The notes: a model not told the origin generated them from the letters alone. A stretch of 64,000 nt of DNA from Bacillota bacterium (GCA_050951805.1 JBMNJT010000002.1:224001-288000); one strand, 5' to 3'; positions 33,166-49,509 are shown, numbered from the stretch's first letter. A program made the numbers and translations.

Positions 33166-33190
33166 ATTGATTGAAAAAGCGAATACGGTG

Positions 33191-33344
33191 GCCTTCAGGG
33201 CAGGGTGTAATTCCCGACCGGTGGTGAAGCTTCTCGGCGCATCTGGCGAAAGATGCGAGGTACTAGAGGCGAGTCCACGAACCGCAATGCGGCTGACCTG
33301 GTTAGAATCCAGGACCGACGGTAAGAGTCCGGATGAAAGAAGGC
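33191..33344 (+). ncRNA. FMN riboswitch (RFN element)
   Basis: CTTCAGGGCAGGGTGTAATTCCCGACCGGTGGT...AGTCCACGA...GACCTGGTTAGAATCCAGGACCGACGGTAAGAGTCCGGATGAAAGAAG. Confidence 0.95.
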
Positions 33345-33371
33345 GGCGTCTTGCAAAAGCGAGTCGACCTT

Positions 33372-33402
33372 AAGCCCCTGGGCCACAACCCAAGGGCTTT
33401 TT
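33372..33402 (+). terminator. Riboswitch expression-platform terminator
   Basis: AAGCCCCTGGG...CCCAAGGGCTTTTT. Confidence 0.75.
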
Positions 33403-33431
33403 CGATACATTTTTCCACGGGGGGTATCGTC

Positions 33432-34028
33432 ATGGGTCAGAATAGTCGCGCACAGTACAGACGCATAGCGACAATGGGGGTGCTTACGGCTCTTTCCATT
33501 GTGATGCTTCTAGTGCTCAGGATTCCTTTTCCGCCTGCGCCATTCCTCATCTATGAACCGGCTGATGTGGCGCTCCTCGTAGCCGGGTTTGCTTTGGGGC
33601 CTGTGTCGGGACTGGTGTGCACCGCAGTCGCCTGCGTGTTTCAGGCTTTGCTGCTCTCATCAGATGGATGGTTTGGGGGCCTCATGCATCTTATCTCGTC
33701 CGGCGCCTTAGTAGCAGTCTCTGCGATGATATACAGCAGGAATAAGACGAAGAGAGGCGCTTACTTGGCATTGCTCGCCGGCGGGGTGGCTATGGTTGCC
33801 GCGATGATCCCGGCTAACATCTTCCTGATTCCGATGTTCTATGGGATGCCAAGACAGGTTGTTGTGGACATGATCGGGTGGATTGTGCTCTTCAACGTGC
33901 TTAAAGCGGGGATCAACTCGGTTTTGACCGCGCTCGTATACAAGCCCATCTCAGGATTGATAAAGGCGGTTCCTTCAGGATCCGGGAGGTCGACGGTGAA
34001 GGCGGCCTCCAAGGAGACTTGGAGGTGA
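33432..34028 (+). CDS. ribU: ECF transporter S component, riboflavin
   Basis: PFPPAPFLIYEPADV, GFALGP, FNVLK..INS.LT..VYKPIS; directly downstream of the FMN riboswitch. Confidence 0.85.
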   Translation: MGQNSRAQYRRIATMGVLTALSIVMLLVLRIPFPPAPFLIYEPADVALLVAGFALGPVSGLVCTAVACVFQALLLSSDGWFGGLMHLISSGALVAVSAMIYSRNKTKRGAYLALLAGGVAMVAAMIPANIFLIPMFYGMPRQVVVDMIGWIVLFNVLKAGINSVLTALVYKPISGLIKAVPSGSGRSTVKAASKETWR

Positions 34029-38776: not shown

Positions 38777-38818
38777 ATGTGTTCCTGCATTATGCATAAT
38801 GACTTGAGCCATGTCGGC

Positions 38819-40000
38819 TCAGTCGAAGACTACTCTGTCCGGCGCCGCACTGTTGGGGTCGAGGAGGTAGCTGCCCAATCCGTTTGCTACCACTTCGTCC
38901 CTGAGCGGCAGGTTCACATAACCGATTTCTCTACCCGGTTCGAACTCGTTGAACATGGTGATAATCATGTCTATAGTCGAGTTGGTTCGCCCGACGCGCT
39001 CATCGATGGGCCATCCGTTTTCGTCGATGCTCTCGTAGAGCAGACCGTGTTCGCCGGCTTTCATCACGAACTCGTCTTTCCCTTCCAGAAGCAGCTTCTC
39101 ATCGGTGACTCCGCGCACTCTATCGAGGAAGGGTTCTGGAACCTCAATCTCAAATGCTAGAGCATCGGTGAAATCGCCCACTTCTCTATGGGATAATCCA
39201 TGGAGTGTTTCGGGAGAGTACTCCATGCCCATGTGGAACTCGGTGGAAGAGAGCATCATCGAAGCCATGCTCGCGATATCTGCAGCATTCTGGTGCGCCA
39301 CTATTGTGCTGATAACTGAGTACTCTAGCTCTGCTTCGTGCAGGTCAAAGAAGAGATCTACGTTTTCCTGCTTGATCAAGTCTATGAAAGCAGCGCAAGT
39401 CCTTTCAGTTATCATGCCGTTGTGTCTGCCGGGCCAGGTGCGGTTGAGGTTGCGAACATCCATGTATGCAAGCAATTGCTTGCTGGGATAGTTGATGTAA
39501 ACCTCAGGATCTGGCCAGGAGTCGAGGGGATTGCTCCACCTGTCTCCCATCCTGAACGTTCTTTCGCCAAAATCCGTTTTGATGCTGTAATACAGCGGAT
39601 ATGCGTCGCCCGGCCTGGTTACCGTGGATGCGCTGTAATTTCCGCGCACCGCAACGAGAATTTTCCCATTAGTGGGGATCACGTTCTCCACTATTGTCAC
39701 AGCGGAAAGCACGCCCGCGGGTTCCTCAGGGTGTGTTCCACCTAAAACGAACACGGTTCCCCCGGGTTCGCCACTGTCAAGCACGTATATGTTGCAGTCA
39801 TTGATGGTACCTTTGACTGCTGGAGAGTAGTCTGACAGCTTCTTGACTTCGGTGACTCCAGGTCCGAGCACTACGGGTTCATCGAAGTGGCGATGCCCGT
39901 ATATCTCCTTTCCGCCGGGAATCACGACGGCAAGCCATAGGACGATGACAATGAGCATTGCCCATCTGTTTACGCCATTTTGATCTTTCTTCTTAGACAT
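38819..40000 (-). CDS. Succinylglutamate desuccinylase/aspartoacylase-like (M14 fold) Zn hydrolase, membrane-anchored
   Basis: N-terminal TM; GGTHPEEPAG, RNLNRTWPG, DLHEAE. Confidence 0.78.
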   Translation of the reverse strand: MSKKKDQNGVNRWAMLIVIVLWLAVVIPGGKEIYGHRHFDEPVVLGPGVTEVKKLSDYSPAVKGTINDCNIYVLDSGEPGGTVFVLGGTHPEEPAGVLSAVTIVENVIPTNGKILVAVRGNYSASTVTRPGDAYPLYYSIKTDFGERTFRMGDRWSNPLDSWPDPEVYINYPSKQLLAYMDVRNLNRTWPGRHNGMITERTCAAFIDLIKQENVDLFFDLHEAELEYSVISTIVAHQNAADIASMASMMLSSTEFHMGMEYSPETLHGLSHREVGDFTDALAFEIEVPEPFLDRVRGVTDEKLLLEGKDEFVMKAGEHGLLYESIDENGWPIDERVGRTNSTIDMIITMFNEFEPGREIGYVNLPLRDEVVANGLGSYLLDPNSAAPDRVVFD

Positions 40001-40028
40001 GCGTGTATGCCGCCTCCTTCCACAGCCT

Positions 40029-40184
40029 CTACTTGATGCGCGCTACACGAAGCGCGAATGGGATTAGCACCGCGGCATACAAGATCACCTTTTTGATGTC
40101 TTTGGCGCGGAACATGTTAAACATGAGCACGGCGGTTATCATTGCCGTAATTACATAGTACAAAACGCTTATAACGCTCTGCAT
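40029..40184 (-). CDS. Small two-TM membrane protein
   Basis: GGAGG RBS; 51 aa, hydrophobic, ends IPFALRVARIK; embedded in the operon. Confidence 0.7.
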   Translation of the reverse strand: MQSVISVLYYVITAMITAVLMFNMFRAKDIKKVILYAAVLIPFALRVARIK

Positions 40185-40203
40185 GTGACATTCCTCCGTT
40201 CGT

Positions 40204-41490
40204 TCATCCACGGGCCAAAAATCCCAGCTTTGGGCTGAAGACTACGAACAGCGTTCCTATGACCAACACGAACAGCGCCGGCACGAGACACTGCTTGAGG
40301 AAGGCCTTGTAGTCTCCATCGTATCCCACAGCCATGACAGCTCCCCTTCCAACAGGGGCAGTCGGCGGCAGGCAGTCTCCCAATGGCCACATTGACGCCA
40401 TGCCCGCCAGAGCTATTACGGGATCATAACCCTTCATGTTGAGAAGGAACACCAACGGAACTCCCAACAGAGGGGCCGAAGCATACTGGAATATTCCCTC
40501 GGATACCGGAAGCACCACGAAGAGCGCCGCGAATATGGCTGCCAGCGGCATGGTGACCACCGAAAGAGATATCAAGCCTCTTGCGCCCGATAGAGCCATG
40601 ATCTGCACGAGTATCCCCACTATTGTTACTGTGCTTATCAGTGGCAGAAGATCCTCGACTGTATTCGAAAGGATCTCGAATACTCGCAACTTGACCGGAG
40701 ATAGGAGCACTACTGCCAGAGCTGAGAGCATGAAGGCAAGCGGAAGGCCTATAACCGGCATCGAAAAGGGAAACTGTCTGCCCAGTATGATGATGCCGAA
40801 GAAGACGACAAATGGTATCGCCACCTTGTACCAAGCCATGCCTTCAGGCGCCTCAGGAATTTCTTTCAAAGCTTGCTCGGCATCTATGGGCTTGCTCCCG
40901 CGTGCCAAATAGAATATGGAGAACAGTGCACCTGCGACAGATATTATGCCGAGAGGCAGAGTGAATCCAACATAGGGCATGTTAGCGCCGGCCGCCGCCA
41001 TCATCGCCCAAAGGTTGATCGGAGGCGCAGCTGCGCTCATTGCCGATCCCATGAACACGGCGGCTGCGACCCGATCTTTAGGGATGCCCATATAGCTTAG
41101 GACAGTGCCCACGAATGATCCGACGACGAGCACAGTCACTGTGCCGGATCCGGTCAGGGCGCCGGGAACGAGCATTATTAGTGTAAGAAGCAGAAGAAGC
41201 GCCACACGGTTCTTGTGAAACTTCGATATAATGCCTCTCACAATGTAGGTTACTCCTCCTGCTTCCTTCAGCAGGTTCATGAAGAACGTAGCTGTGATGA
41301 ATATGAAAACCACATCGAAATATGTGAAGGTCCCCTCCACGATGTGGCGGGCAGGGATCCCTGCCCCATGCGCGATGGCGCCTGCTATTGCCGCAATGAG
41401 CATAGATATTTCAGTGCCCAAGCGGAGTAGGATCGCGATCACGAAGGCGACGGCTATCACCGCCAGGACCATAGCTGCGTGAGCATACAC
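40204..41490 (-). CDS. TRAP large-subunit/ion-transporter-superfamily permease
   Basis: About 11-12 TM segments; PGALTGSG, AAPPINLWAM, CLPPT. Confidence 0.75.
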   Translation of the reverse strand: MYAHAAMVLAVIAVAFVIAILLRLGTEISMLIAAIAGAIAHGAGIPARHIVEGTFTYFDVVFIFITATFFMNLLKEAGGVTYIVRGIISKFHKNRVALLLLLTLIMLVPGALTGSGTVTVLVVGSFVGTVLSYMGIPKDRVAAAVFMGSAMSAAAPPINLWAMMAAAGANMPYVGFTLPLGIISVAGALFSIFYLARGSKPIDAEQALKEIPEAPEGMAWYKVAIPFVVFFGIIILGRQFPFSMPVIGLPLAFMLSALAVVLLSPVKLRVFEILSNTVEDLLPLISTVTIVGILVQIMALSGARGLISLSVVTMPLAAIFAALFVVLPVSEGIFQYASAPLLGVPLVFLLNMKGYDPVIALAGMASMWPLGDCLPPTAPVGRGAVMAVGYDGDYKAFLKQCLVPALFVLVIGTLFVVFSPKLGFLARG

Positions 41491-41543
41491 AGGTTATTCC
41501 ACCTCGTCCTAGTACAAATTAAGGCGTTAAGCTCTCTTGTCTA

Positions 41544-42176
41544 TTATCTAAACAGAACGCTGAACGCGTACTTGAAATCCATGGATTCAACGGTCCTGAT
41601 GATCGGAATCCCCTTCTGCTTTGCTGCGTTCGTGAAGAAGCCGTCCTTGTCTACTTCCTTCCTCACGATGAGAATATCGGACTTCGATGTGACTGCTCTG
41701 TTCGATTTCTCGTCGGACTCATCCGTCCGCCGCGCGCTTCCCTCTATCTGAATTCCTACTATGGTCATTCCGAGCTTCTTAGCCTGATCAGCCAGGGCGT
41801 TGCATCTTGCGACTTCCTTGTCGATATCTACCCCTGCGCCGCCCATTCCCTTCAAGCTGGTTCCCATGGACATTATCAGGGTCTTGTAGGCGGTCTTCGG
41901 GTTCTTGCTCGCCTTTACCAAGTCTTCGGCGGTAACCATATCGTCATGGGTGACGTCGATCTTCAGCTGCTTCATCAGCACTTTAGCCCATGATGCGCCC
42001 GGAGCCTGTCCAATTGAGGTTATGAGAACCGGCTGGTCGAGCTTGGGTAACTTTGCAGGAATCTCGATCCCTGCGGGCTTGCTGACTGAGCCGAAGCATA
42101 CGCCTGTTGACAGAATCATGCTCATGACTGCTGCAATGGCAATCAGGATTGTTCGTCGAACAGAAGAGTGTTTCAT
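41544..42176 (-). CDS. DUF6305-like secreted protein
   Basis: Signal peptide; PVLITSIGQAPG, GTSLKGMGGAGVDIDKEVAR, QIEGSARR, DKDGFFT. Confidence 0.7.
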   Translation of the reverse strand: MKHSSVRRTILIAIAAVMSMILSTGVCFGSVSKPAGIEIPAKLPKLDQPVLITSIGQAPGASWAKVLMKQLKIDVTHDDMVTAEDLVKASKNPKTAYKTLIMSMGTSLKGMGGAGVDIDKEVARCNALADQAKKLGMTIVGIQIEGSARRTDESDEKSNRAVTSKSDILIVRKEVDKDGFFTNAAKQKGIPIIRTVESMDFKYAFSVLFR

Positions 42177-42234
42177 GTTGTGTAAATCTCCTTTCTTTTC
42201 CTGAAGCACTTGTGTTGACCTACTACGATTTAGC

Positions 42235-42264
42235 CCTCGGTTTCGCCATCTGGCGAAACCGAGG
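42235..42264 (-). other. Intercistronic hairpin
   Basis: CCTCGGTTTCGCCA-tc-TGGCGAAACCGAGG. Confidence 0.6.
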
Positions 42265-42306
42265 ACAATTCTGCGGATCATCGTCCACAGATGAAAGGCC
42301 AGATGA

Positions 42307-43887
42307 CTAGAAGGTGTTGTCGTTCCACTTCAACGTCAGTTCTTCGGCCGCCCGATAGTAGGTGTCAACCGCCTTGGCACATCTCGAATGTGTGTAGTTT
42401 GTCAGGAATGTCTTGGCCAGAGCGGGGTCTTTCTCATAGAGCTCCACGGCAGCCTTCTCGATCACTGGCTGAAGCTCGAACTGCTCGGCCTCGAACGGTT
42501 CTCTCACCTTTTTGAGGTCGGCCAATATGTCGACGTATCTTCGGCTGACGAGGTTGTCCATGTACTCAAACACCCACCATGCCGATTCCTTCATGCTGTC
42601 GAAGGTAAAGACCGTTCTGTCGTTAACAGCGTAGTTCTTTGGCAGGCTGTCGACTCCGCAGTAGATCGGTACATACACGGATGACAGCGGGTTGCTCAGA
42701 CCAAACCAGCAAAGGCCGCCCACTGGATCAGGGAGCCAGTCGCGTGCTTGGACTATCGTGAAGTAGGAGCAGTAGGGAACTGCGATGTTTCGCATGTTCA
42801 CTGGGATTCCTATATGCTGTCTTCGTGCGGTGCCTGGGTTGGGCTGCGCGTACGGGGTCTTCACAGGGTTACCCTGTTTGTCGACAACAGGGTTACCTTC
42901 GGCATCCTTCAGATACCATCCTGGGGCGTCGGCCATATCGAATTCCGTACCCTGATAGTGATCGCGATAGATGTTCATCATGTCCTGAACAGTGATTGGC
43001 CGCTCGGCTTTGACGGTGAAGGGATACCTGTCGGCATTGGGATCTAGGTTAAGGGAGGGAGCTACCATTGAGAGGACTCTCCACTCGCGGAGCTTGCATC
43101 CAAACCAGTTGCTGGGGCAGTACGCCTTCCAGAACAAGAACTCTTCGCCGCTTTCCGGATCCCACCAGCCATTTTCGATGGCTACATCAAATACGTTGGA
43201 TGAGCACATATAGTTCTCTGGATCGTCCGGGTTGACCTCGCAGATTCGGCTTCTGTTGGCTGAAACGCCAACATGGCCTTCGGGGATGCGGACGGCGGCC
43301 CAAATGGCGCCCTTCTGGAAGTTGCCTGGAGGCATAACTTCAAAGTGCCATATTTCGTTCGGGTCTCCCACGGTGAGGCATTCGCCGCCATCGATGTAGC
43401 CGTAAGTCTCGGCTAGCTCGCCCATGATCTGGACTGCCTCTCGTGCCGTCTTCGCTCTCTGCAGTCCGAGGATCTGGAGGGTATCTATATAAAGAAGCCC
43501 TATGTCGGTGCTGAGCTCTGACCGGTTGCCGATGGTCGTTTCGCCCATGATCACTTGATGTTCGTTCATGTAAGGATAGCCGGCGTGGAAGTACGTGTAT
43601 GTTACAGGGGCCTCGGGAATTTCCCCGATCAGTTCCGGCTCTGCATAGTCGGCATGCAGATGGTCTCTATAGCACTTGAACGTATCTTCTGGCTTGTGTG
43701 TTTTGCCTGGCACGACATATGTCCTGGCGTCGTACCAACCGTCGCACGTATGCGCTGTCATAACTGATCCATCTGCGGAAGCGCCCTTCGATACTGGCAC
43801 TGATGTGCAAGCAAAGGCTGGGAAAGCAGATGCAATGACCATTACGATCGCGAGCAATAGTCCAGTGTACTTAGATTTCGTTCTCAA
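42307..43887 (-). CDS. Secreted peptidase C69 (Ntn-hydrolase dipeptidase/secernin-like)
   Basis: Signal peptide ending AFA|CTS gives an N-terminal Cys nucleophile; DGSVMTAH, MNEHQVIMGETT, AKTAREAV, WAAVRIP, RDHYQGT. Confidence 0.88.
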   Translation of the reverse strand: MRTKSKYTGLLLAIVMVIASAFPAFACTSVPVSKGASADGSVMTAHTCDGWYDARTYVVPGKTHKPEDTFKCYRDHLHADYAEPELIGEIPEAPVTYTYFHAGYPYMNEHQVIMGETTIGNRSELSTDIGLLYIDTLQILGLQRAKTAREAVQIMGELAETYGYIDGGECLTVGDPNEIWHFEVMPPGNFQKGAIWAAVRIPEGHVGVSANRSRICEVNPDDPENYMCSSNVFDVAIENGWWDPESGEEFLFWKAYCPSNWFGCKLREWRVLSMVAPSLNLDPNADRYPFTVKAERPITVQDMMNIYRDHYQGTEFDMADAPGWYLKDAEGNPVVDKQGNPVKTPYAQPNPGTARRQHIGIPVNMRNIAVPYCSYFTIVQARDWLPDPVGGLCWFGLSNPLSSVYVPIYCGVDSLPKNYAVNDRTVFTFDSMKESAWWVFEYMDNLVSRRYVDILADLKKVREPFEAEQFELQPVIEKAAVELYEKDPALAKTFLTNYTHSRCAKAVDTYYRAAEELTLKWNDNTF

Positions 43888-44331
43888 CTACGTTCGCCTC
43901 CTGTTTGCTGGAGATAAAATGCTTCAAATCGTGAGTACAGTTTCGACTGCTCAAGCAGAGCGCCTTGTCTATGCCATGATCACCTCCCTAGCGTCAAATG
44001 CAACCAATAGACCGACATTGACCCAAATTACACGAAGCCCGAAACTTTGTGTAATTTTTCGCAATATCTACGGAAAGCTTCTACATGTGAAACATAAATC
44101 CTCCTTATGATTGAAAAAACATTTCGTGATATCATCCATATCGACCGCAAGACTGCTAATTAGACCGCAACAAATCTCTTCGCAGTCCTCGAGTTTGTAT
44201 TGCCGCTGTCTGCGAGTTAGCCGGGGGACTACTAAGGTCCTTTACTGGCCTTCGGTAGAAGCCTAGGAAAGCGCCGTGCAGCGTGGAGCCGGCCAAGGTT
44301 CGCCGCGGGGGCGAGCAGGTTTTGCAGACCA

Positions 44332-44598
44332 GTCTAAGTCTTAGCCATTTGCAATCGCAAAGCGTTCAAAAACTAGACGGTAGTGGTCTCAAACTTAGAC
44401 ACTCGCTTGCGCTCTAAGCCAATATGTGGGTATATGCACTTCTGCATAGTTATTTATCCCCGGAAACTGGGTCCTTGTGACAGTGCATGCCGGATTACCC
44501 CTGCCTAAGATTGCCTTCCGGCTTCAAGCGGCTAAAATTTAGACGGGGCCAGTCTAAAACTTGGACACCTGCGCCCGAAAAGCGACTAAATAATAGAC
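44332..44598. promoter_or_regulatory. Six palindromic 15-bp boxes (GTCTAAnnnTTAGAC) in two mirror-image triads
   Basis: Boxes start at 44332, 44364, 44386 and 44530, 44552, 44584 (spacings 32,22 / 22,32); degenerate seventh at 44151. Confidence 0.75.
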
Positions 44599-45163
44599 AT
44601 ATTCCTTGAAGGCAGGCCCAAGTCGCCCTTTCATATGAGTGCGTTGAATGCATAAACCGTCGGAGCGCTCACACGGATCTCATGGTCGGGAGCGTATGCG
44701 CGTCGCTTTCGTGGTTGCAAAGAAGATGGTTGCCCGCGAGCGTCGAACCGGGATTTCGATTACGCCATCTACCCTGGCCTTGCCCCGGGGATCATATCCC
44801 GGTGCGGCTGAGTTTATGGCTAAGGCCAAGATCCCCCAAAACCGCGTGCGTTGTCGATGCACAAATGCGAACCAATTACCGCACTGCGACATAGGTGCAA
44901 AGATGTGTCTACTCCTAGCAGACATCATATAGAAGGCTAACCGATAGCGCAAAAAGCTCATTGGGAGTTACTTATGGGAGTCACTTAGATGAAATACAGG
45001 CACTGAGATGAGTATATGTTGTAAGCCAACATTTGCCTTACTGACTGAGCTGCATGAGAAAGTTCTTGGGTGATGACCCCACATTTCGCTAGAAGGAATT
45101 GCGTCTTGCTCATCGAAAATTGAAAGAATATCGAGCCTGCATCGATACAAAAGGGTGATATGT

Positions 45164-46351
45164 ATGCACGGTTTTGCGGTGATGTGCGCCTGTCTTTTCG
45201 TGGCCGGAGTTATCGAGAACTGGTTGCACACGCGCCGTCTCAGCAGAATATCCGTTAGAATACACGTGAACGGCACTAGGGGAAAATCGACAATCACGAG
45301 GTTGATAGCTGCTGGTTTGCGTGCCGGAGGTATGCGCGTGATTGCAAAGACCACAGGCACGGCGGCAAGAATCATATTTGAGGACGGCTCGGAAGAGCCG
45401 GTTGTACGACGCGGAAATTGCGCCAACATCTCCGAGCAGATGAGACTAGTCAAGTTGGCCGAATCGAGGGGGGCAGACGCGATAGTCGTGGAGTGCATGG
45501 CACTTCAGCCTGAAAACCAATGGGCAGCGGAGCGGCACATGATCAAGTCTACAGTGGGCGTGATAACCAACGTGCGCGACGATCACTTGGATGTCATGGG
45601 CCCGACCGTGCACGACGTTGCCGAAGCCCTTTCGTTAACCGTTCCATACGGAGGCGCGCTGGTCACTGCGGAGCAGAAGTTCCTCCATGTCTTTGAAGAT
45701 AGAGCGCGGAAGACGGGAGCGTCCGTTTACGTGGTAGACGCATCCGGTGCACCGGCTGATGCAACCGCAAACTTCGACTACATCAGTTTTCCTGAAAACA
45801 TTGCATGTGCGCTGAAAGTGTGTGAATTGTGCGGCGTGCCGCGTGATCTGGCGCTGGAAGGAATGCTGACCGCCCAGGGAGATCCTGGAGCCACGCGAAT
45901 ACTCAGGATCGATCGGGGCAAGGCCTCTTACGTTTTCGTCAATGCGTTTGCCGCTAATGACCGTGACTCTACAGAACTGGTATGCAAGGCGGCGGAAGGC
46001 AGGATCGCCCCGTTCATCCGGAAGGGGCTGCCAGCCATCGTCATTTTGAACAACAGGTCTGATAGGCCATTTCGCGCTGAAGAGCTTGCCGGCTTCGTCG
46101 CGGAGAGTATTTCACCCCAATGGGCATTTGTGGTGGGCGAGGCAGGCAGGGTGGCCGTACGGGGACTTAAGAGGGGCAAAGTTGCAGAATCCGTCATCGT
46201 GGATCTCACGCACCAGCCCAAAGCGGAGAGAATATTGGCAAAAGTGGCAGATCGATGCCCTGCAGGGGCCGTCATATATGGGATTGGAAACACCAGGGGC
46301 ATGGGCGAGAGGATAATCCAGTATTTCGAGGCAAACGGGGTGGCATTGTGA
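45164..46351 (+). CDS. pgsB: Poly-gamma-glutamate synthase PgsB/CapB
   Basis: RIHVNGTRGKS, AKTTGT, ANISEQ, ECMALQP, ITNVRDDHLDVMG, NAFAAND, NNRSDR, YGIGN. Confidence 0.95.
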   Translation: MHGFAVMCACLFVAGVIENWLHTRRLSRISVRIHVNGTRGKSTITRLIAAGLRAGGMRVIAKTTGTAARIIFEDGSEEPVVRRGNCANISEQMRLVKLAESRGADAIVVECMALQPENQWAAERHMIKSTVGVITNVRDDHLDVMGPTVHDVAEALSLTVPYGGALVTAEQKFLHVFEDRARKTGASVYVVDASGAPADATANFDYISFPENIACALKVCELCGVPRDLALEGMLTAQGDPGATRILRIDRGKASYVFVNAFAANDRDSTELVCKAAEGRIAPFIRKGLPAIVILNNRSDRPFRAEELAGFVAESISPQWAFVVGEAGRVAVRGLKRGKVAESVIVDLTHQPKAERILAKVADRCPAGAVIYGIGNTRGMGERIIQYFEANGVAL

Positions 46352-46779
46352 CCGTAACCGTCTCAATTGGAATTGGACTAATAGTCGGCTTCATCTTCAC
46401 CGAACTGACAGGGCTATACGCCGGAGGCCTGGTGGTCCCCGGGTATCTCGCATTATACCTTGATCAGCCGCTCAGAATATTGGCCACATTCCTGGTGGCT
46501 CTCCTAGCTTACGGGATTGTGTGGGTCATATCGAATTTCCTTGCAATCTATGGAAGGCGGCGTTTCATGGCCTGCGTCATAGTCGGTTTCTGGCTGGGCT
46601 GGCTGCTGAACAGGACTGGCATGAGCATTACACCGGGAGGGCCCCAATTGCGGGCGATTGGTTACATCATTCCAGGCCTCATAGCAAACGACATTGCCAG
46701 GCAGGGAGCCGCACGCACATTCCTATCAGTGCTTGTGGTTGCTGCAGTGGTTAGGTTGCTTATGATCGTTTTTGCCTGA
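46348..46779 (+). CDS. pgsC: Poly-gamma-glutamate biosynthesis protein PgsC/CapC
   Basis: GGLVVPGYLAL, YGRRRF, IGYIIPGLIAN; GTGA overlap with pgsB. Confidence 0.95.
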   Translation: MTVTVSIGIGLIVGFIFTELTGLYAGGLVVPGYLALYLDQPLRILATFLVALLAYGIVWVISNFLAIYGRRRFMACVIVGFWLGWLLNRTGMSITPGGPQLRAIGYIIPGLIANDIARQGAARTFLSVLVVAAVVRLLMIVFA

Positions 46780-46942
46780 AGGGCGTGTTGACGTATCCTA
46801 TTGCCGACAGGCTTTCGTGGCAAGTTGTAAGAAGCATTTGACATTGTAAAGCGTCTAAGGGCCGAACTGCTGGCAGCGCAAAGAAGTGGCGCTCTTGGGG
46901 GTTGGCGGCTGCCTGAGGGTGTTAGAGGGAGGGAACGAACGG

Positions 46943-48103
46943 GTGAAAAAGGGTTGCATGGCGCCCACGGGGCGACAATATGGAAGGGATCGAGTCAACT
47001 TCGGCATCTTGCTCTTGGCGTCTCTTGTGGCGTTGGCAGCCTTGGCGGTTTCGGTGCGGCCTGACCGCATTGGACTGCCTGGCGATCCCCGAGGCAGTGT
47101 AGGGGCATGTGTGGAGGAACAGATTGCAGCTGCCGAAATCATGGCAGAATGCATCGCAGCTGTGCGCGATGCCAGGGCCGAGCTGGGCATTGCTATCGAT
47201 CCTGACCTCGACCCCAACGGAACAGGGCTGATCGGTCATGATCTCACTCCGCTCACCACTACTGTTGGGGTTTTGGAGGCGAAGCGCACTGCCACCAGTC
47301 CCGATTTCGCGGCCCTCATGGTGAAGTATTTCAACGAGGCTGGGCTGCGGGAGGGCGATGTGGTAGCAGTGGGCGCCAGCGGTTCATTCCCGTCCTTGAT
47401 TATCGCCACGTTGGCTGCTTCAAGGGCTATGAATCTCGAACCTATCCTCATATACTCCATAGGTGCTTCGATGTACGGCGCTACCATACCAGAGTTTACT
47501 TTCATCGAGATGTTGGACGCGATACGGGCCAAAGGGATCCTCCCTTATTACATCGCCGCTGTGTCGCTTGGCGGAGACGACGATGCAGGCGGAGGCGGCC
47601 TGTTCGAGGAATCGAGAGACATATCGGAGGAGATCGCCGAGCGCTCGGGAGCGTACGTAATACGTGAGGATTCGATCGAAAAGAGCGTAGCCAGGCGCAT
47701 GCAGGTTTTCGAAGAGGCTGCAGCCGAGCATGGTCGGCCCATAGCCTGTTTTGTGAACGTAGGTGGGGCTTCGGCCAACTACGGGGCAACCTCAGCTTCA
47801 CTCGACTTTCCCAACGGTTTGGTGATGGTTCCGAAAGTAATGTCTGTAGATCCCAAAAGGGGCTTGATGTTCGAGTATGCCGCAATGGGGCTGCCGGTAA
47901 TAAACCTCATAGACATCAGGGGACTTGCGATCCAAAATGGCATTCCAGTAGACCCCATTCCCCTTCCAGGTCCTGGCGAGGGACGTGTGTATGCCGCTCA
48001 TAGCTGCTCCAAACCCGCAGCCGCCGTCGGGCTTGCGGGCTGTCTCTTCTTGATCGGCGGAGCATGGGCAAAGAGCAGAAGGCGTTTGCAACCCGATGGC
48101 TAG
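46943..48103 (+). CDS. pgsW: Poly-gamma-glutamate system protein (TIGR04332/PgsW-like)
   Basis: DPNGTGLIG..TPLTTTVG.LEAKRTATSPDFAA, GASGSFP, SIGASMYGAT, FVNVGG, PVINL; N- and C-terminal TMs. Confidence 0.85.
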   Translation: MKKGCMAPTGRQYGRDRVNFGILLLASLVALAALAVSVRPDRIGLPGDPRGSVGACVEEQIAAAEIMAECIAAVRDARAELGIAIDPDLDPNGTGLIGHDLTPLTTTVGVLEAKRTATSPDFAALMVKYFNEAGLREGDVVAVGASGSFPSLIIATLAASRAMNLEPILIYSIGASMYGATIPEFTFIEMLDAIRAKGILPYYIAAVSLGGDDDAGGGGLFEESRDISEEIAERSGAYVIREDSIEKSVARRMQVFEEAAAEHGRPIACFVNVGGASANYGATSASLDFPNGLVMVPKVMSVDPKRGLMFEYAAMGLPVINLIDIRGLAIQNGIPVDPIPLPGPGEGRVYAAHSCSKPAAAVGLAGCLFLIGGAWAKSRRRLQPDG

Positions 48104-48459: not shown

Positions 48460-48729
48460 GTCGTCTTTCCGGAACTCCCTACGACTGACAGAGGCATGTG
48501 CCGATGGTGAACGAGACAGGAATAATCTCGCCGCTTTGCTCCGGGAAGAATGGTGCGATGGCGGATAATACATGCGCAAGCCTACTTCTCCATCACCCTG
48601 GCACCGCCTTTGCCGACACGTTAAGTCCGCTCTGCGGTTTCAGTAGCCTTTGTCAAGTGCCTCAGTCCTGGTCCACATGCCTTTGCTGCTGAATACATTG
48701 AATCAGGTATTCTATACGAGGTGAACGGT

Positions 48730-49509
48730 ATGTGGTTGTTCCAAAAACCCAAAACGCCATCGGGTGAGGATAGTCTCTGTTATCCACCGTGTCCACCGTG
48801 CTCACCGTGTTTGCCATGTCCGCCATGTCCGCCCGGACCGCCTGGTCCGCAGGGTCCCCCTGGTCCGCAGGGTACACAGGGACCGCCAGGTCCACAGGGA
48901 CCACAGGGTCCTCCTGGTCCGCAGGGTTCGCCTGGTCCACAGGGTCCTCCTGGTCCTCAGGGTCCACAGGGTCCGCCTGGTCCGCCGGCTCGCATCTGTC
49001 CATGTGGCAATCTAGTGGCCAACGGATCGTTTGACGATTGGGATAGTGCTAATGAGCCATCTGGCTGGAACATTGCGGGAAATGTTGGAGAAGAAACCAC
49101 GAACGTGCATACCCTGGGATTTTCTGCAAACCTTGGAACACCGACAGGGGTAGATAACCCTGCCAAATTGGGGCAGACATTGACCGAGGTCAAATGTGGA
49201 TGCTGCTATCGCTTTGAATTCCATGCCACCGGTCACAACAATTCGGAGGATGCCTTTCGCGCCCAGGTGCTCTTCGACGGCAGCGTGGTGACGGAGGTGT
49301 TGCTTCCGAGCCCAGTGGAGCCTCAGTACAGCTACTTTAGTGCCTATGTACCCTGCGTTCCTCCTGGCGTCACTGTAGACATTCTGTTCATCAAGCCTGG
49401 CGCAGGGACTTGGTTTATCGATGATGTCGGGTTCATAGCCGAGGGCCCGTGCACCGGCGGATACTGGCATCCTTTTGGCGGTTGTGATTCTGGCGTGTCC
49501 ACAGTATAG
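48730..49509 (+). CDS. Collagen-like protein with Cys-X-Pro leader and C-terminal CBM-like beta-sandwich
   Basis: 17 Gly-X-Y triplets (mostly GPP/GPQ) preceded by [19 protein letters not shown]; C-terminal domain [11 protein letters not shown]...WFIDDV. Confidence 0.8.

Follow-up and report, generated by a model that had tools for sequence, protein, structure and literature searches.

What does a candidate set of genes for cleavage and uptake do next to the genes for the synthesis of poly-gamma-glutamate (PGA)? This question is raised by positions 38819 to 48103 of a 64,000-nucleotide stretch of DNA from a Bacillota bacterium (GCA_050951805.1 JBMNJT010000002.1:224001-288000), the whole of which we call the window. 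Here, the genes encoding PgsB, PgsC and a protein of the family TIGR04332 are located on the plus strand, and five genes are encoded divergently on the minus strand, namely those for a secreted hydrolase, a DUF6305 protein, a permease, a small membrane protein and a zinc hydrolase. Judging from gene content and gene context, we consider it somewhat probable that the minus strand operon is an extracytoplasmic cut-and-import module for glutamyl compounds, which would in this locus serve the PGA of the adjoining PgsB-PgsC-TIGR04332 system. This reading is supported by the recurrence of the neighbourhood in many lineages.

The identities of the genes were taken from the ORF list together with Pfam and NCBIfam scans, and membrane helices from a simple hydropathy scan. 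PgsB, the ligase subunit of the poly-gamma-glutamate synthase (45155-46351, plus strand), contains a Mur_ligase_M domain in the Pfam scan and meets the equivalog cut-off of TIGR04012 (410.7 bits against 222.7). The ORF of the membrane subunit PgsC extends from 46255 to 46779 on the same strand (TIGR04011, 131 bits against a cut-off of 96.45; PF14102, 125.6 bits), and since the TIGR04011 match begins at residue 38, the true start probably lies near 46354. The third gene of the plus strand (46886-48103) encodes the TIGR04332 'poly-gamma-glutamate system protein', also called PgsW (323.5 bits, cut-off 100). On the minus strand, the gene next to the spacer encodes an N-terminal nucleophile (Ntn) hydrolase of family C69 with 526 amino acids (42307-43887; PF03577, 209.8 bits). 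It is followed by the DUF6305 gene (ORF 41544-42281; PF19823, 142.6 bits, cut-off 25), of which a database form of 221 amino acids, 100% identical to the window protein, covers 41544-42206 and therefore places the start near 42206. The other three genes encode a permease of the ion-transporter superfamily, distantly DctM-like, with 428 amino acids and approximately 11 predicted helices (40204-41490; identified by a family profile), a membrane protein of 60 amino acids with two helices, which was recognized by the hydropathy scan and its conservation (40029-40211), and a zinc hydrolase of the AstE/AspA-type (M14-like) with 393 amino acids (38819-40000; PF24827, 34.6 bits, cut-off 25). This set is tightly packed: the genes for the small membrane protein and the permease overlap by 8 nt, and the remaining intergenic distances amount to 28, 53 and about 100-130 nt. 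According to the hydropathy scan, C69, DUF6305 and the zinc hydrolase have one N-terminal helix each.

An initial annotation of this DNA had described pgsB-pgsC-pgsW on the plus strand and a divergent five-gene operon on the minus strand, and all eight genes were recovered at the proposed positions by the ORF, Pfam and NCBIfam analyses. It had also reported the absence of capA/pgsA, capD/ggt, capE and pgdS from the locus. Our scans agree with this for the region between 33.3 and 53 kb, where genes of the CapA-, GGT-, PghP- or NlpC/P60-type were not found (ORF and Pfam scans), and Pfam and NCBIfam scans found neither PgsA/CapA nor PgsE, PgdS or CapD at the locus. The two gene sets had been called back-to-back. 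They are indeed arranged divergently, but they are not in direct contact, since a spacer of 1.27 kb lies between them, which holds a repeated element of approximately 820 bp.

The same genes occur together in many other organisms. With DUF6305 alone as query, 70 loci were fetched, many of them on short contigs, and the window proteins were mapped onto them. The records are titled Bacillota, Bipolaricaulota, Thermotogota, Atribacterota, Synergistota, Gemmatimonadota, Aerophobetes, Aminicenantes, Mycoplasmatota and others, and the titles include the isolates Flavonifractor sp. An92, Pseudoflavonifractor sp. 524-17, Pseudoflavonifractor sp. HCP28S3_F10 and Halanaerobium sp. MA284_MarDTE_T2. The permease was found in 59 of the 70 loci, the zinc hydrolase in 56, both of them in 55, C69 also in 55, and GGT in six. 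At least one pgs gene was present in the fetched flank of 36 loci, and in 12 of the 18 loci that have at least 8 kb on both sides. In 31 of these 36 loci, the pgs genes and DUF6305 share a strand, and in the remaining five they are encoded on opposite strands. The titles of the pgs-bearing loci comprise at least seven phylum labels: Bacillota (Oscillospiraceae, Halanaerobiales), Bipolaricaulota, Atribacterota, Synergistota, Gemmatimonadota, Aerophobetes and Mycoplasmatota. The gene order varies: in Oscillospiraceae it is C69, DUF6305, permease, small membrane protein, hydrolase, pgsB, pgsC, TIGR04332, and in Bipolaricaulota and Atribacterota pgsB, pgsC and TIGR04332 come first and are followed by C69, DUF6305, permease, small membrane protein and hydrolase. 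Among 33 genomes whose fetched locus has no pgs gene, 22 encode a PgsB above the cut-off elsewhere, three give partial matches, and eight, which may be incomplete, show none.

A sample of 301 genomes of the phylum of the window's organism was surveyed as well, in raw counts that ignore kinship. DUF6305 is present in 37 of these genomes, PgsB above the cut-off in 26 and TIGR04332 in 20. Of the TIGR04332-positive genomes, 18 of 20 contain DUF6305, compared to 19 of the 281 TIGR04332-negative ones, and the positive genomes span at least 11 family-level groups of the sample. Among the PgsB-positive genomes the share is 19 of 26. The seven genomes that are positive for PgsB and negative for TIGR04332 have the highest PgsB scores (426-576 bits), and only one of them has DUF6305. 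For 15 of the 20 TIGR04332 genomes, DUF6305 and the TIGR04332-linked pgs set share a contig and are no more than approximately 10 kb apart. In a sixteenth genome (G289), the distance from DUF6305 to a PgsB match is about 6 kb, and the TIGR04332 gene is on another contig. Two genomes have no DUF6305 match: in G246, two zinc hydrolase genes directly precede pgsB at the start of an 8.9-kb contig, and in G299 the pgs genes are located at the end of a 7-kb contig. Altogether, three of the 20 genomes were not judgeable because of contig ends, and no clear counter-example was seen among the 20. Since DUF6305 is present in 18 of 20 TIGR04332-positive and in 19 of 281 TIGR04332-negative genomes, the juxtaposition of the pgs set and the DUF6305 module is more than chance. 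A DUF6305 operon that usually occurs without pgs genes, which the initial annotation had named as the finding that would speak against it, is therefore not what these two surveys revealed. The co-occurrence that it had predicted for DUF6305, permease, deacylase and C69 with pgsB/pgsC/TIGR04332 is borne out, with the small membrane protein included, as a strong enrichment across many lineages and gene orders.

The composition of the module can be seen in three relatives from the window's order, which together possess 21 DUF6305 genes in 19 regions. In 19 of the 21 cases, the gene stands in a run with permease and zinc hydrolase genes, and C69 and/or GGT is present in all but two of the 19 regions. 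The exceptions are L082, which breaks off inside the hydrolase gene, and L091, where the contig of 6.2 kb stops in GGT and no permease was seen. Each of the three relatives has a triad divergent from pgsB (L077, L086, L090), and in the genome of the window a different paralog takes this place. The small membrane protein, which has no Pfam or NCBIfam match, was detected by tblastn in 32 of the 70 loci, and a small ORF with the motif PF(V/I/L)LR..R.K was present in all 21 of the tblastn-missed loci that were re-examined. The motif search also found it in pgs-adjacent triads. The conserved core of the module consists of DUF6305, a DctM-like permease, a two-helix protein of 50-60 residues and an anchored zinc hydrolase of the AstE/AspA-type. 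A secreted Ntn hydrolase, either C69 or GGT, usually accompanies this four-gene core: within 10 kb of 79 DUF6305 genes of the transporter-type, we found C69 only in 54 cases, GGT only in nine, both in six and neither in ten.

That C69 and GGT can take each other's place is also evident from the remaining genome of the window's organism (2.75 Mb in 8 contigs, 97% complete), which contains two DUF6305 genes, one C69, two GGT and two CapA-family genes (PF09587; C2:443517 and C2:1151107, distant from the locus) and in which no PghP-family gene (PF05908) was found. The second DUF6305 gene lies approximately 165 kb away in a paralogous module (G000:C2:429900-436000, equal to L003:8947-14890) with the order anchored zinc hydrolase, DUF6305, secreted zinc hydrolase, secreted GGT, DctM-like permease. 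Its GGT reaches 521.4 bits with PF01019, a family without a match in the window locus itself, and its permease reaches 30.4 bits with PF06808 (DctM; cut-off 23.8). GGT, gamma-glutamyltranspeptidase, is known to hydrolyse gamma-glutamyl bonds, and its presence at the position of C69, like its fusion to DUF6305 in one database protein, fits an action of C69 and the zinc enzyme on such bonds. A 100-amino-acid ORF behind the paralogous permease (L003:14958-15260) was considered as the gene of the small subunit and rejected, as it has no predicted helix, and the motif search in GGT-type modules found no gene for the small membrane protein. A CapA-family gene (PF09587) is located about 9 kb beyond the paralogous module (C2:443517-444242).

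Are the hydrolases of the module suited for such a task? The zinc hydrolase contains the motifs HPEE and DLHE, and the residues H90, E93, R183, N184, R187, H221, E222, H271, R272 and E273 are invariant in 22 aligned sequences. H90, E93 and H221 correspond to the zinc ligands H, E and H. A profile built from 22 homologs matches the AstE/AspA structures 2qj8 (6.4e-13), 6twl (DoeB, 3.7e-09) and 3cdx. The family looks catalytically competent. It is not a DoeB equivalog (TIGR02994, 20.1 bits, cut-off 402.7). A single helix (residues 9-27) follows a basic N-terminus, so that the catalytic domain should, by the positive-inside rule, be located outside the cell. AstE-type enzymes split an N-acyl group from the acidic amino acid that forms the C-terminal end of the substrate. 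Gamma-Glu-Glu is very similar to the AstE substrate N-succinyl-glutamate, from which it differs by one carbon and an amino group, and this makes the proposed chemistry plausible.

The signal peptide of the C69 enzyme ends in AFA|C, with the cysteine directly behind the predicted cleavage site, so that removal of the signal peptide would expose the cysteine as the nucleophile of an Ntn hydrolase. In most of the C69 homologs with inspected N-termini, the signal peptide likewise leads straight into the cysteine, followed by T, S or N. CapD belongs to the GGT family, and both it and GGT are described in PMC4497714 as enzymes that cleave or anchor PGA.

The permease and its small partner are more difficult to place. 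The only Pfam match of the window permease is Na_H_antiporter with 22.5 bits, below the cut-off of 23 bits. A search of the PDB with the single sequence gave no match, and a profile of 23 homologs has as its only PDB match 9pym, an isethionate DctMQ protein of the tripartite ATP-independent periplasmic (TRAP) transporters (E 2.8e-4), so that the similarity to DctM is weak but specific. In the small membrane protein, Y18, L44, P51, F52, R55 and K60 are invariant over 17 aligned loci, and the protein may act as a miniature DctQ. The minus strand operon has no DctP-type ORF, and DUF6305 is its sole secreted non-enzyme. A complex prediction with alignments for permease, small membrane protein and DUF6305 (residues 45-221), run with no controls, scored 0.00 twice compared to a mark of 0.32 and bears neither way.

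DUF6305 itself has an N-terminal hydrophobic signal or anchor, in the form of a signal peptide or a lipobox. At E ≤ 0.001, a set of 1.84 billion proteins contains 796 cluster representatives of the family. The initial annotation had suggested a comparison of its fold. An AlphaFold model with a single Rossmann-like alpha/beta domain (mean pLDDT 85) was obtained, but a specific structural relative was not: Foldseek against the PDB returned only generic alpha/beta proteins (SGNH, CheY-like, thiazole kinase; TM 0.30-0.45), a wide VIA alignment gave ribokinase-like proteins and halves of UDP-GlcNAc 2-epimerase as its best matches (Z up to 9.8), and a look-up in the ESM Atlas gave no usable match. 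Homology between DUF6305 and TIGR04332, which had been suspected from similar loop motifs, was rejected (hhalign probability 0.4%, E 0.15).

DUF6305 does not always occur with a permease. We examined 13 loci from genomes of the phylum sample that contain DUF6305 but no PgsB. In 12 of them, the gene is followed by ORFs of approximately 455 and 205 amino acids, and a match to the permease or hydrolase is missing there. The pair represents a HisKA/HATPase kinase and a response regulator in all seven loci scanned with Pfam (L093, L097, L100, L101, L104, L106, L108), ORFs of these sizes are present in five more, and genes of the Opp oligopeptide ABC transporter often adjoin. The five kinases that were examined have three to seven predicted N-terminal membrane helices within the first 215 residues or so, and Pfam detected no sensor domain in these kinases. 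The thirteenth locus (L109:7944-11741, from the window's family) combines DUF6305 with a hydantoinase/oxoprolinase-family and a histone-deacetylase-family protein and has no permease; its DUF6305 forms a very long branch in the tree (2.12).

Both contexts also meet at pgs loci. In Halanaerobiales (L028-L031, L041, L111), pgsB, pgsC, TIGR04332, a sensor-type DUF6305, a short AstE-like hydrolase, the kinase and the regulator form one string, which continues with a second DUF6305, permease, small membrane protein, zinc hydrolase and C69. This arrangement looks like a built-in control circuit. Homologs of the kinase and the regulator follow TIGR04332 in L096, L113 and L114. In members of the family to which the window belongs (L006, L007, L083), they are placed between the two modules. 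The genome of the window has no full-length homolog of the DUF6305-linked kinase or regulator, only generic similarity of the kinase core.

A maximum likelihood tree of 116 DUF6305 domains, rooted at the midpoint, places 19 of the 20 kinase-context rows on one side, with a weak support of 74, and the single exception is a labelling artefact at a contig end. Both branches share T64, G67, Q68, E132 and R135, and the loop GTSxKGMGAAG is restricted to the transporter branch. Two placements in this tree stand out: the DUF6305 of L013 (titled Thermotoga sp.) is nearly identical to those of Bipolaricaulota L012 and L014, and that of L020 (titled Thorarchaeota) stands beside Mesotoga, which may be due to binning errors or recent transfer. 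Among the 796 representatives we identified three fusions, each in one representative and each possibly an artefact of gene calling: GGT with DUF6305 (P0157, 717 amino acids), a TPR region and a TctC receptor with DUF6305 (P0092, 818 amino acids), and two DUF6305 domains with a dockerin (P0041, 454 amino acids). The pairing with either a permease or a sensor kinase, together with the fusions, makes DUF6305 a candidate solute receptor. The idea of the initial annotation that DUF6305, the small membrane protein and the permease may form a tripartite importer gains support from the invariant core, the weak but specific likeness of the permease to DctM, the kinase-linked DUF6305 branch and the TctC fusion.

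Expression of the minus strand set as a unit would agree with the occurrence of the locus in RNA libraries. Metagenome runs that contain the stretch were obtained from anaerobic digesters, sludge and bioreactors, and it is also present in six RNA libraries from three studies. The contigs compared here are from four RNA runs, and they give neither strand nor level nor proof of a single transcript, and carry-over of DNA is possible. Single contigs from three studies span 38784-43920, 38786-44045 and 39437-44028. The first two contain all five minus strand genes, from about 35 nt past the stop of the zinc hydrolase gene to 33-158 nt before the start of C69, and the third begins inside the zinc hydrolase gene. 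Other contigs (45140-46448 and 45221-47685) lie within pgsB to TIGR04332. The upper ends at 44004-44045 recur in three runs, and the lower end at 38784-38786 is common to runs from three studies. A promoter-like site is located upstream of C69 (44063-44091, minus strand; TTCACA, a 17-nt spacer and GATATT; 9 of 12 consensus positions). As the scan gave 11 sites in total compared to 7.8 ± 2.5 in shuffled sequences, this site is a weak hint and not significant alone. The common lower end and the promoter-like site together fit a five-gene transcript.

If we combine these observations, the following picture of the proposed cut-and-import module emerges. The secreted C69 enzyme, or GGT in the sister modules, would attack gamma-glutamyl chains or oligomers outside the cell, as would the anchored zinc hydrolase, and both would shorten the chains from their ends. 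Secreted DUF6305 would capture free glutamate or short gamma-glutamyl peptides and pass them to the DctM-like permease and its two-helix mini-subunit, which would amount to a TRAP-like importer with a new kind of receptor. In this way, the cell could trim, release or reclaim its own polymer or that of a neighbour. The make-and-reclaim function for PGA that the initial annotation had put forward agrees with the co-occurrence, but its scope is too narrow in view of the additional DUF6305 copies and the 12 kinase-linked loci among 13. A wider proposal, which we make tentatively, is that DUF6305 could represent a new class of single-domain receptors with an importer branch and a kinase branch, and that together with the pgs genes and the hydrolases it might manage an extracellular bank of glutamate.

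Several points weigh against the cut-and-import module for PGA. Those AstE/AspA enzymes that have been characterized deacylate small N-acyl amino acids and are not known to hydrolyse polymers. The C69 members of known function are alpha-dipeptidases, and the C69 enzyme of the window lies below the cut-off of the dipeptidase equivalog (NF033678, 169.1 bits, cut-off 250). None of the nine locus proteins, and thus also not the zinc hydrolase, matches the PghP family PF05908 at E ≤ 0.01. The predicted fold of DUF6305 is not like that of the two-lobed binding proteins, and the permease of the window passes no Pfam cut-off. Relatives possess up to nine DUF6305 genes (G162) compared to a single pgs set, so that most modules must have other substrates, and eight of the 33 module-bearing genomes mentioned above showed no PgsB. 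Where synthase and module are contiguous and on one strand, as in 31 of 36 loci, making and breaking of the polymer would be co-expressed, unless the enzymes only trim or release it. Moreover, the disregard of kinship in the phylum sample and the restrictions of the RNA contigs apply to this reading as well.

It is possible, though rather unlikely in our view, that the module serves the supply of glutamate, harvesting it from peptides, N-acyl-glutamates, glutathione-like gamma-glutamyl compounds or glutamine outside the cell to feed PGA synthesis or fermentation, without using the cell's own polymer as a substrate. The characterized relatives of all three enzyme types (AstE/AspA, GGT and C69 dipeptidases) free glutamate or aspartate, many modules lie away from the pgs genes within the same genomes, the sensor-type DUF6305 genes often stand beside Opp genes, and the sources of the organisms, namely anaerobic digesters, sludge and guts, are rich in peptides. 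However, such a supply system does not account for the link to TIGR04332 (18 of 20 genomes), while six of the seven PgsB-positive, TIGR04332-negative genomes are without DUF6305, and a plain importer would not need an anchored hydrolase in every copy.

The link to TIGR04332 leads to the question, what this protein contributes and whether the module might rather belong to the maturation of PGA. TIGR04332 occupies the place of PgsA/CapA beside PgsB-PgsC. With one helix at each end (39-57 and 377-395), it is predicted to consist of a Rossmann-like domain that is held between two anchoring helices and lies, again by the positive-inside rule, outside the cell (AlphaFold model, mean pLDDT 83). It has no Pfam match, Foldseek found nothing at E ≤ 1e-3, and a search of the PDB with the single sequence gave one weak match (E 0.36). 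The best VIA match is generic Rossmann-like (Z 7.6), and none among the matches listed is CapA-like. In a maturation pathway, it would be the task of the anchored zinc enzyme and the Ntn hydrolase to release nascent PGA, to size it or to attach it covalently, comparable to PgdS and CapD in Bacillus, and the permease would merely recover by-products. This would suit the near-obligate linkage to the synthase (18 of 20 genomes), the frequent co-directional string (31 of 36 loci) and TIGR04332 systems that have no PgsA in the locus. According to the excerpted text of PMC4497714, capD is part of the cap operon, pgdS is located downstream of pgs, PgdS has been suggested to release chains and GGT strips single residues from the N-terminal side. 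Nevertheless, we regard maturation as the main role as quite improbable: eight of 33 genomes have modules without any PgsB, extra copies per genome are numerous, attachment of a polymer needs neither a DctM-like importer nor a secreted binding-type protein, and nothing resembling the target-recognition domain of a transpeptidase was found in the module by the Pfam scan.

A merely coincidental neighbourhood of the pgs genes with a broad importer of peptides or acyl-amino acids that has no functional tie to PGA is very unlikely, since the adjacency recurs in at least four gene orders and at least seven phylum labels, and since 12 of the 13 DUF6305-positive, PgsB-negative loci belong to the kinase-linked branch and none has a transporter module, even if DUF6305 occurs in 19 of the 281 TIGR04332-negative genomes and some paralogs have varied partners, such as the hydantoinase/oxoprolinase and deacetylase of L109.

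The spacer and the surroundings of the locus contain some further features. The repeated non-coding element of the spacer (44156-44974), which was recognized by self-matches of the genome, recurs at ten or more other places with 78-88% identity, often in partial copies that comprise either the 5' part of about 220 bp or the 3' part of about 430 bp, and it has no match in Rfam. Some contigs from RNA libraries contain joints that skip parts of this element and are probably derived from other copies. We also considered the 1.27-kb spacer as the relic of an older module and rejected this, as tblastn with ORFs from related loci gave only matches at chance level and the start of pgsB. The flanking genes are unrelated to the locus and encode an ECF riboflavin transporter, TraX, serine dehydratase, an iron-dependent alcohol dehydrogenase, a collagen-repeat protein, OsmC, Smr, a CsoR-type repressor and HtrA. 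The Rfam scan of the window revealed an FMN riboswitch and two tRNAs, and nothing more. At 33187-34028, the riboswitch (98.4 bits) precedes the S component of the ECF-type riboflavin transporter, and the collagen-like protein with GPP/GPQ repeats (PF01391, 262 amino acids, 48721-49509) is encoded just past the tRNA downstream of TIGR04332.

In full-text searches, no publication turned up that deals with DUF6305, TIGR04332 or the combination of genes described here, and the text of a preprint on Cloacimonadota (10.1101/2025.11.11.687785), as far as its accessible part goes and its supplements aside, mentions neither pgsB nor a dipeptidase. If the cut-and-import module exists as proposed, this would assign a function to DUF6305, to its universal partner of 50 residues and to an unstudied branch of AstE-like and C69 enzymes, and it would define a tripartite transporter with a receptor unlike the known binding proteins. 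It would also point to a second type of PGA system outside Bacillus, in which TIGR04332 replaces PgsA and the fixed companions can be named. Judging from the titles of the loci and the RNA libraries, the turnover of polyglutamate may matter in guts, digesters and sludge. Should the wider proposal of a glutamate bank hold true, anaerobes with at least seven phylum labels, including Oscillospiraceae of the gut, would possess a set that makes, senses, trims and re-imports the polymer.

How does the module compare to known systems? With the AstE/AspA family (succinylglutamate desuccinylase, aspartoacylase and DoeB), the zinc hydrolase of the window shares the zinc motif HxxE...H, the Arg/Asn/Arg positions and the His-Arg-Glu positions. 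In contrast to this family, it is anchored in the membrane, presumably faces outwards and is about 60 residues longer due to insertions. PghP, a PGA hydrolase from phages, is also a zinc enzyme, related to carboxypeptidase A and with a carboxypeptidase-like character, that cuts gamma-glutamyl bonds (PMC4497714, in excerpt), and its likeness to the enzyme described here is one of functional analogy only: the zinc hydrolase of the window does not match PF05908, and a gene of this family was not found in the genome.

The kinase-linked branch of DUF6305 resembles LuxP-LuxQ and TorT-TorS, which are sensor kinases that depend on a binding protein. In these systems as well, a small secreted protein is encoded directly ahead of a kinase lacking its own extracytoplasmic sensor domain. 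They differ in the secreted partner, as DUF6305 does not have the fold of a periplasmic binding protein.

The closest counterparts of the proposed importer are the TRAP systems (DctPQM, SiaPQM, the IseQM of 9pym and TAXI-TRAP), which likewise combine a secreted receptor, for which DUF6305 is the candidate here, with a small membrane subunit and a large permease. However, TRAP receptors of the DctP- or TAXI-type are two-lobed, whereas DUF6305 appears to be a single Rossmann-like domain of approximately 160 residues. The small subunit of the module has two helices and 50-60 residues and is not of the DctQ-type, since DctQ has four helices. Unlike in TRAP systems, the anchored zinc hydrolase is a fixed fourth member.

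Finally, the whole locus can be compared to pgsBCA(E) with pgdS and ggt in Bacillus subtilis and to capBCADE in Bacillus anthracis. These loci share PgsB and PgsC with the locus of the window, and in all of them secreted hydrolases are encoded near the synthase. The locus described here differs from those of Bacillus by TIGR04332 at the position of PgsA, by hydrolases of the C69- and AstE/AspA-type and by what we propose to be a dedicated importer.

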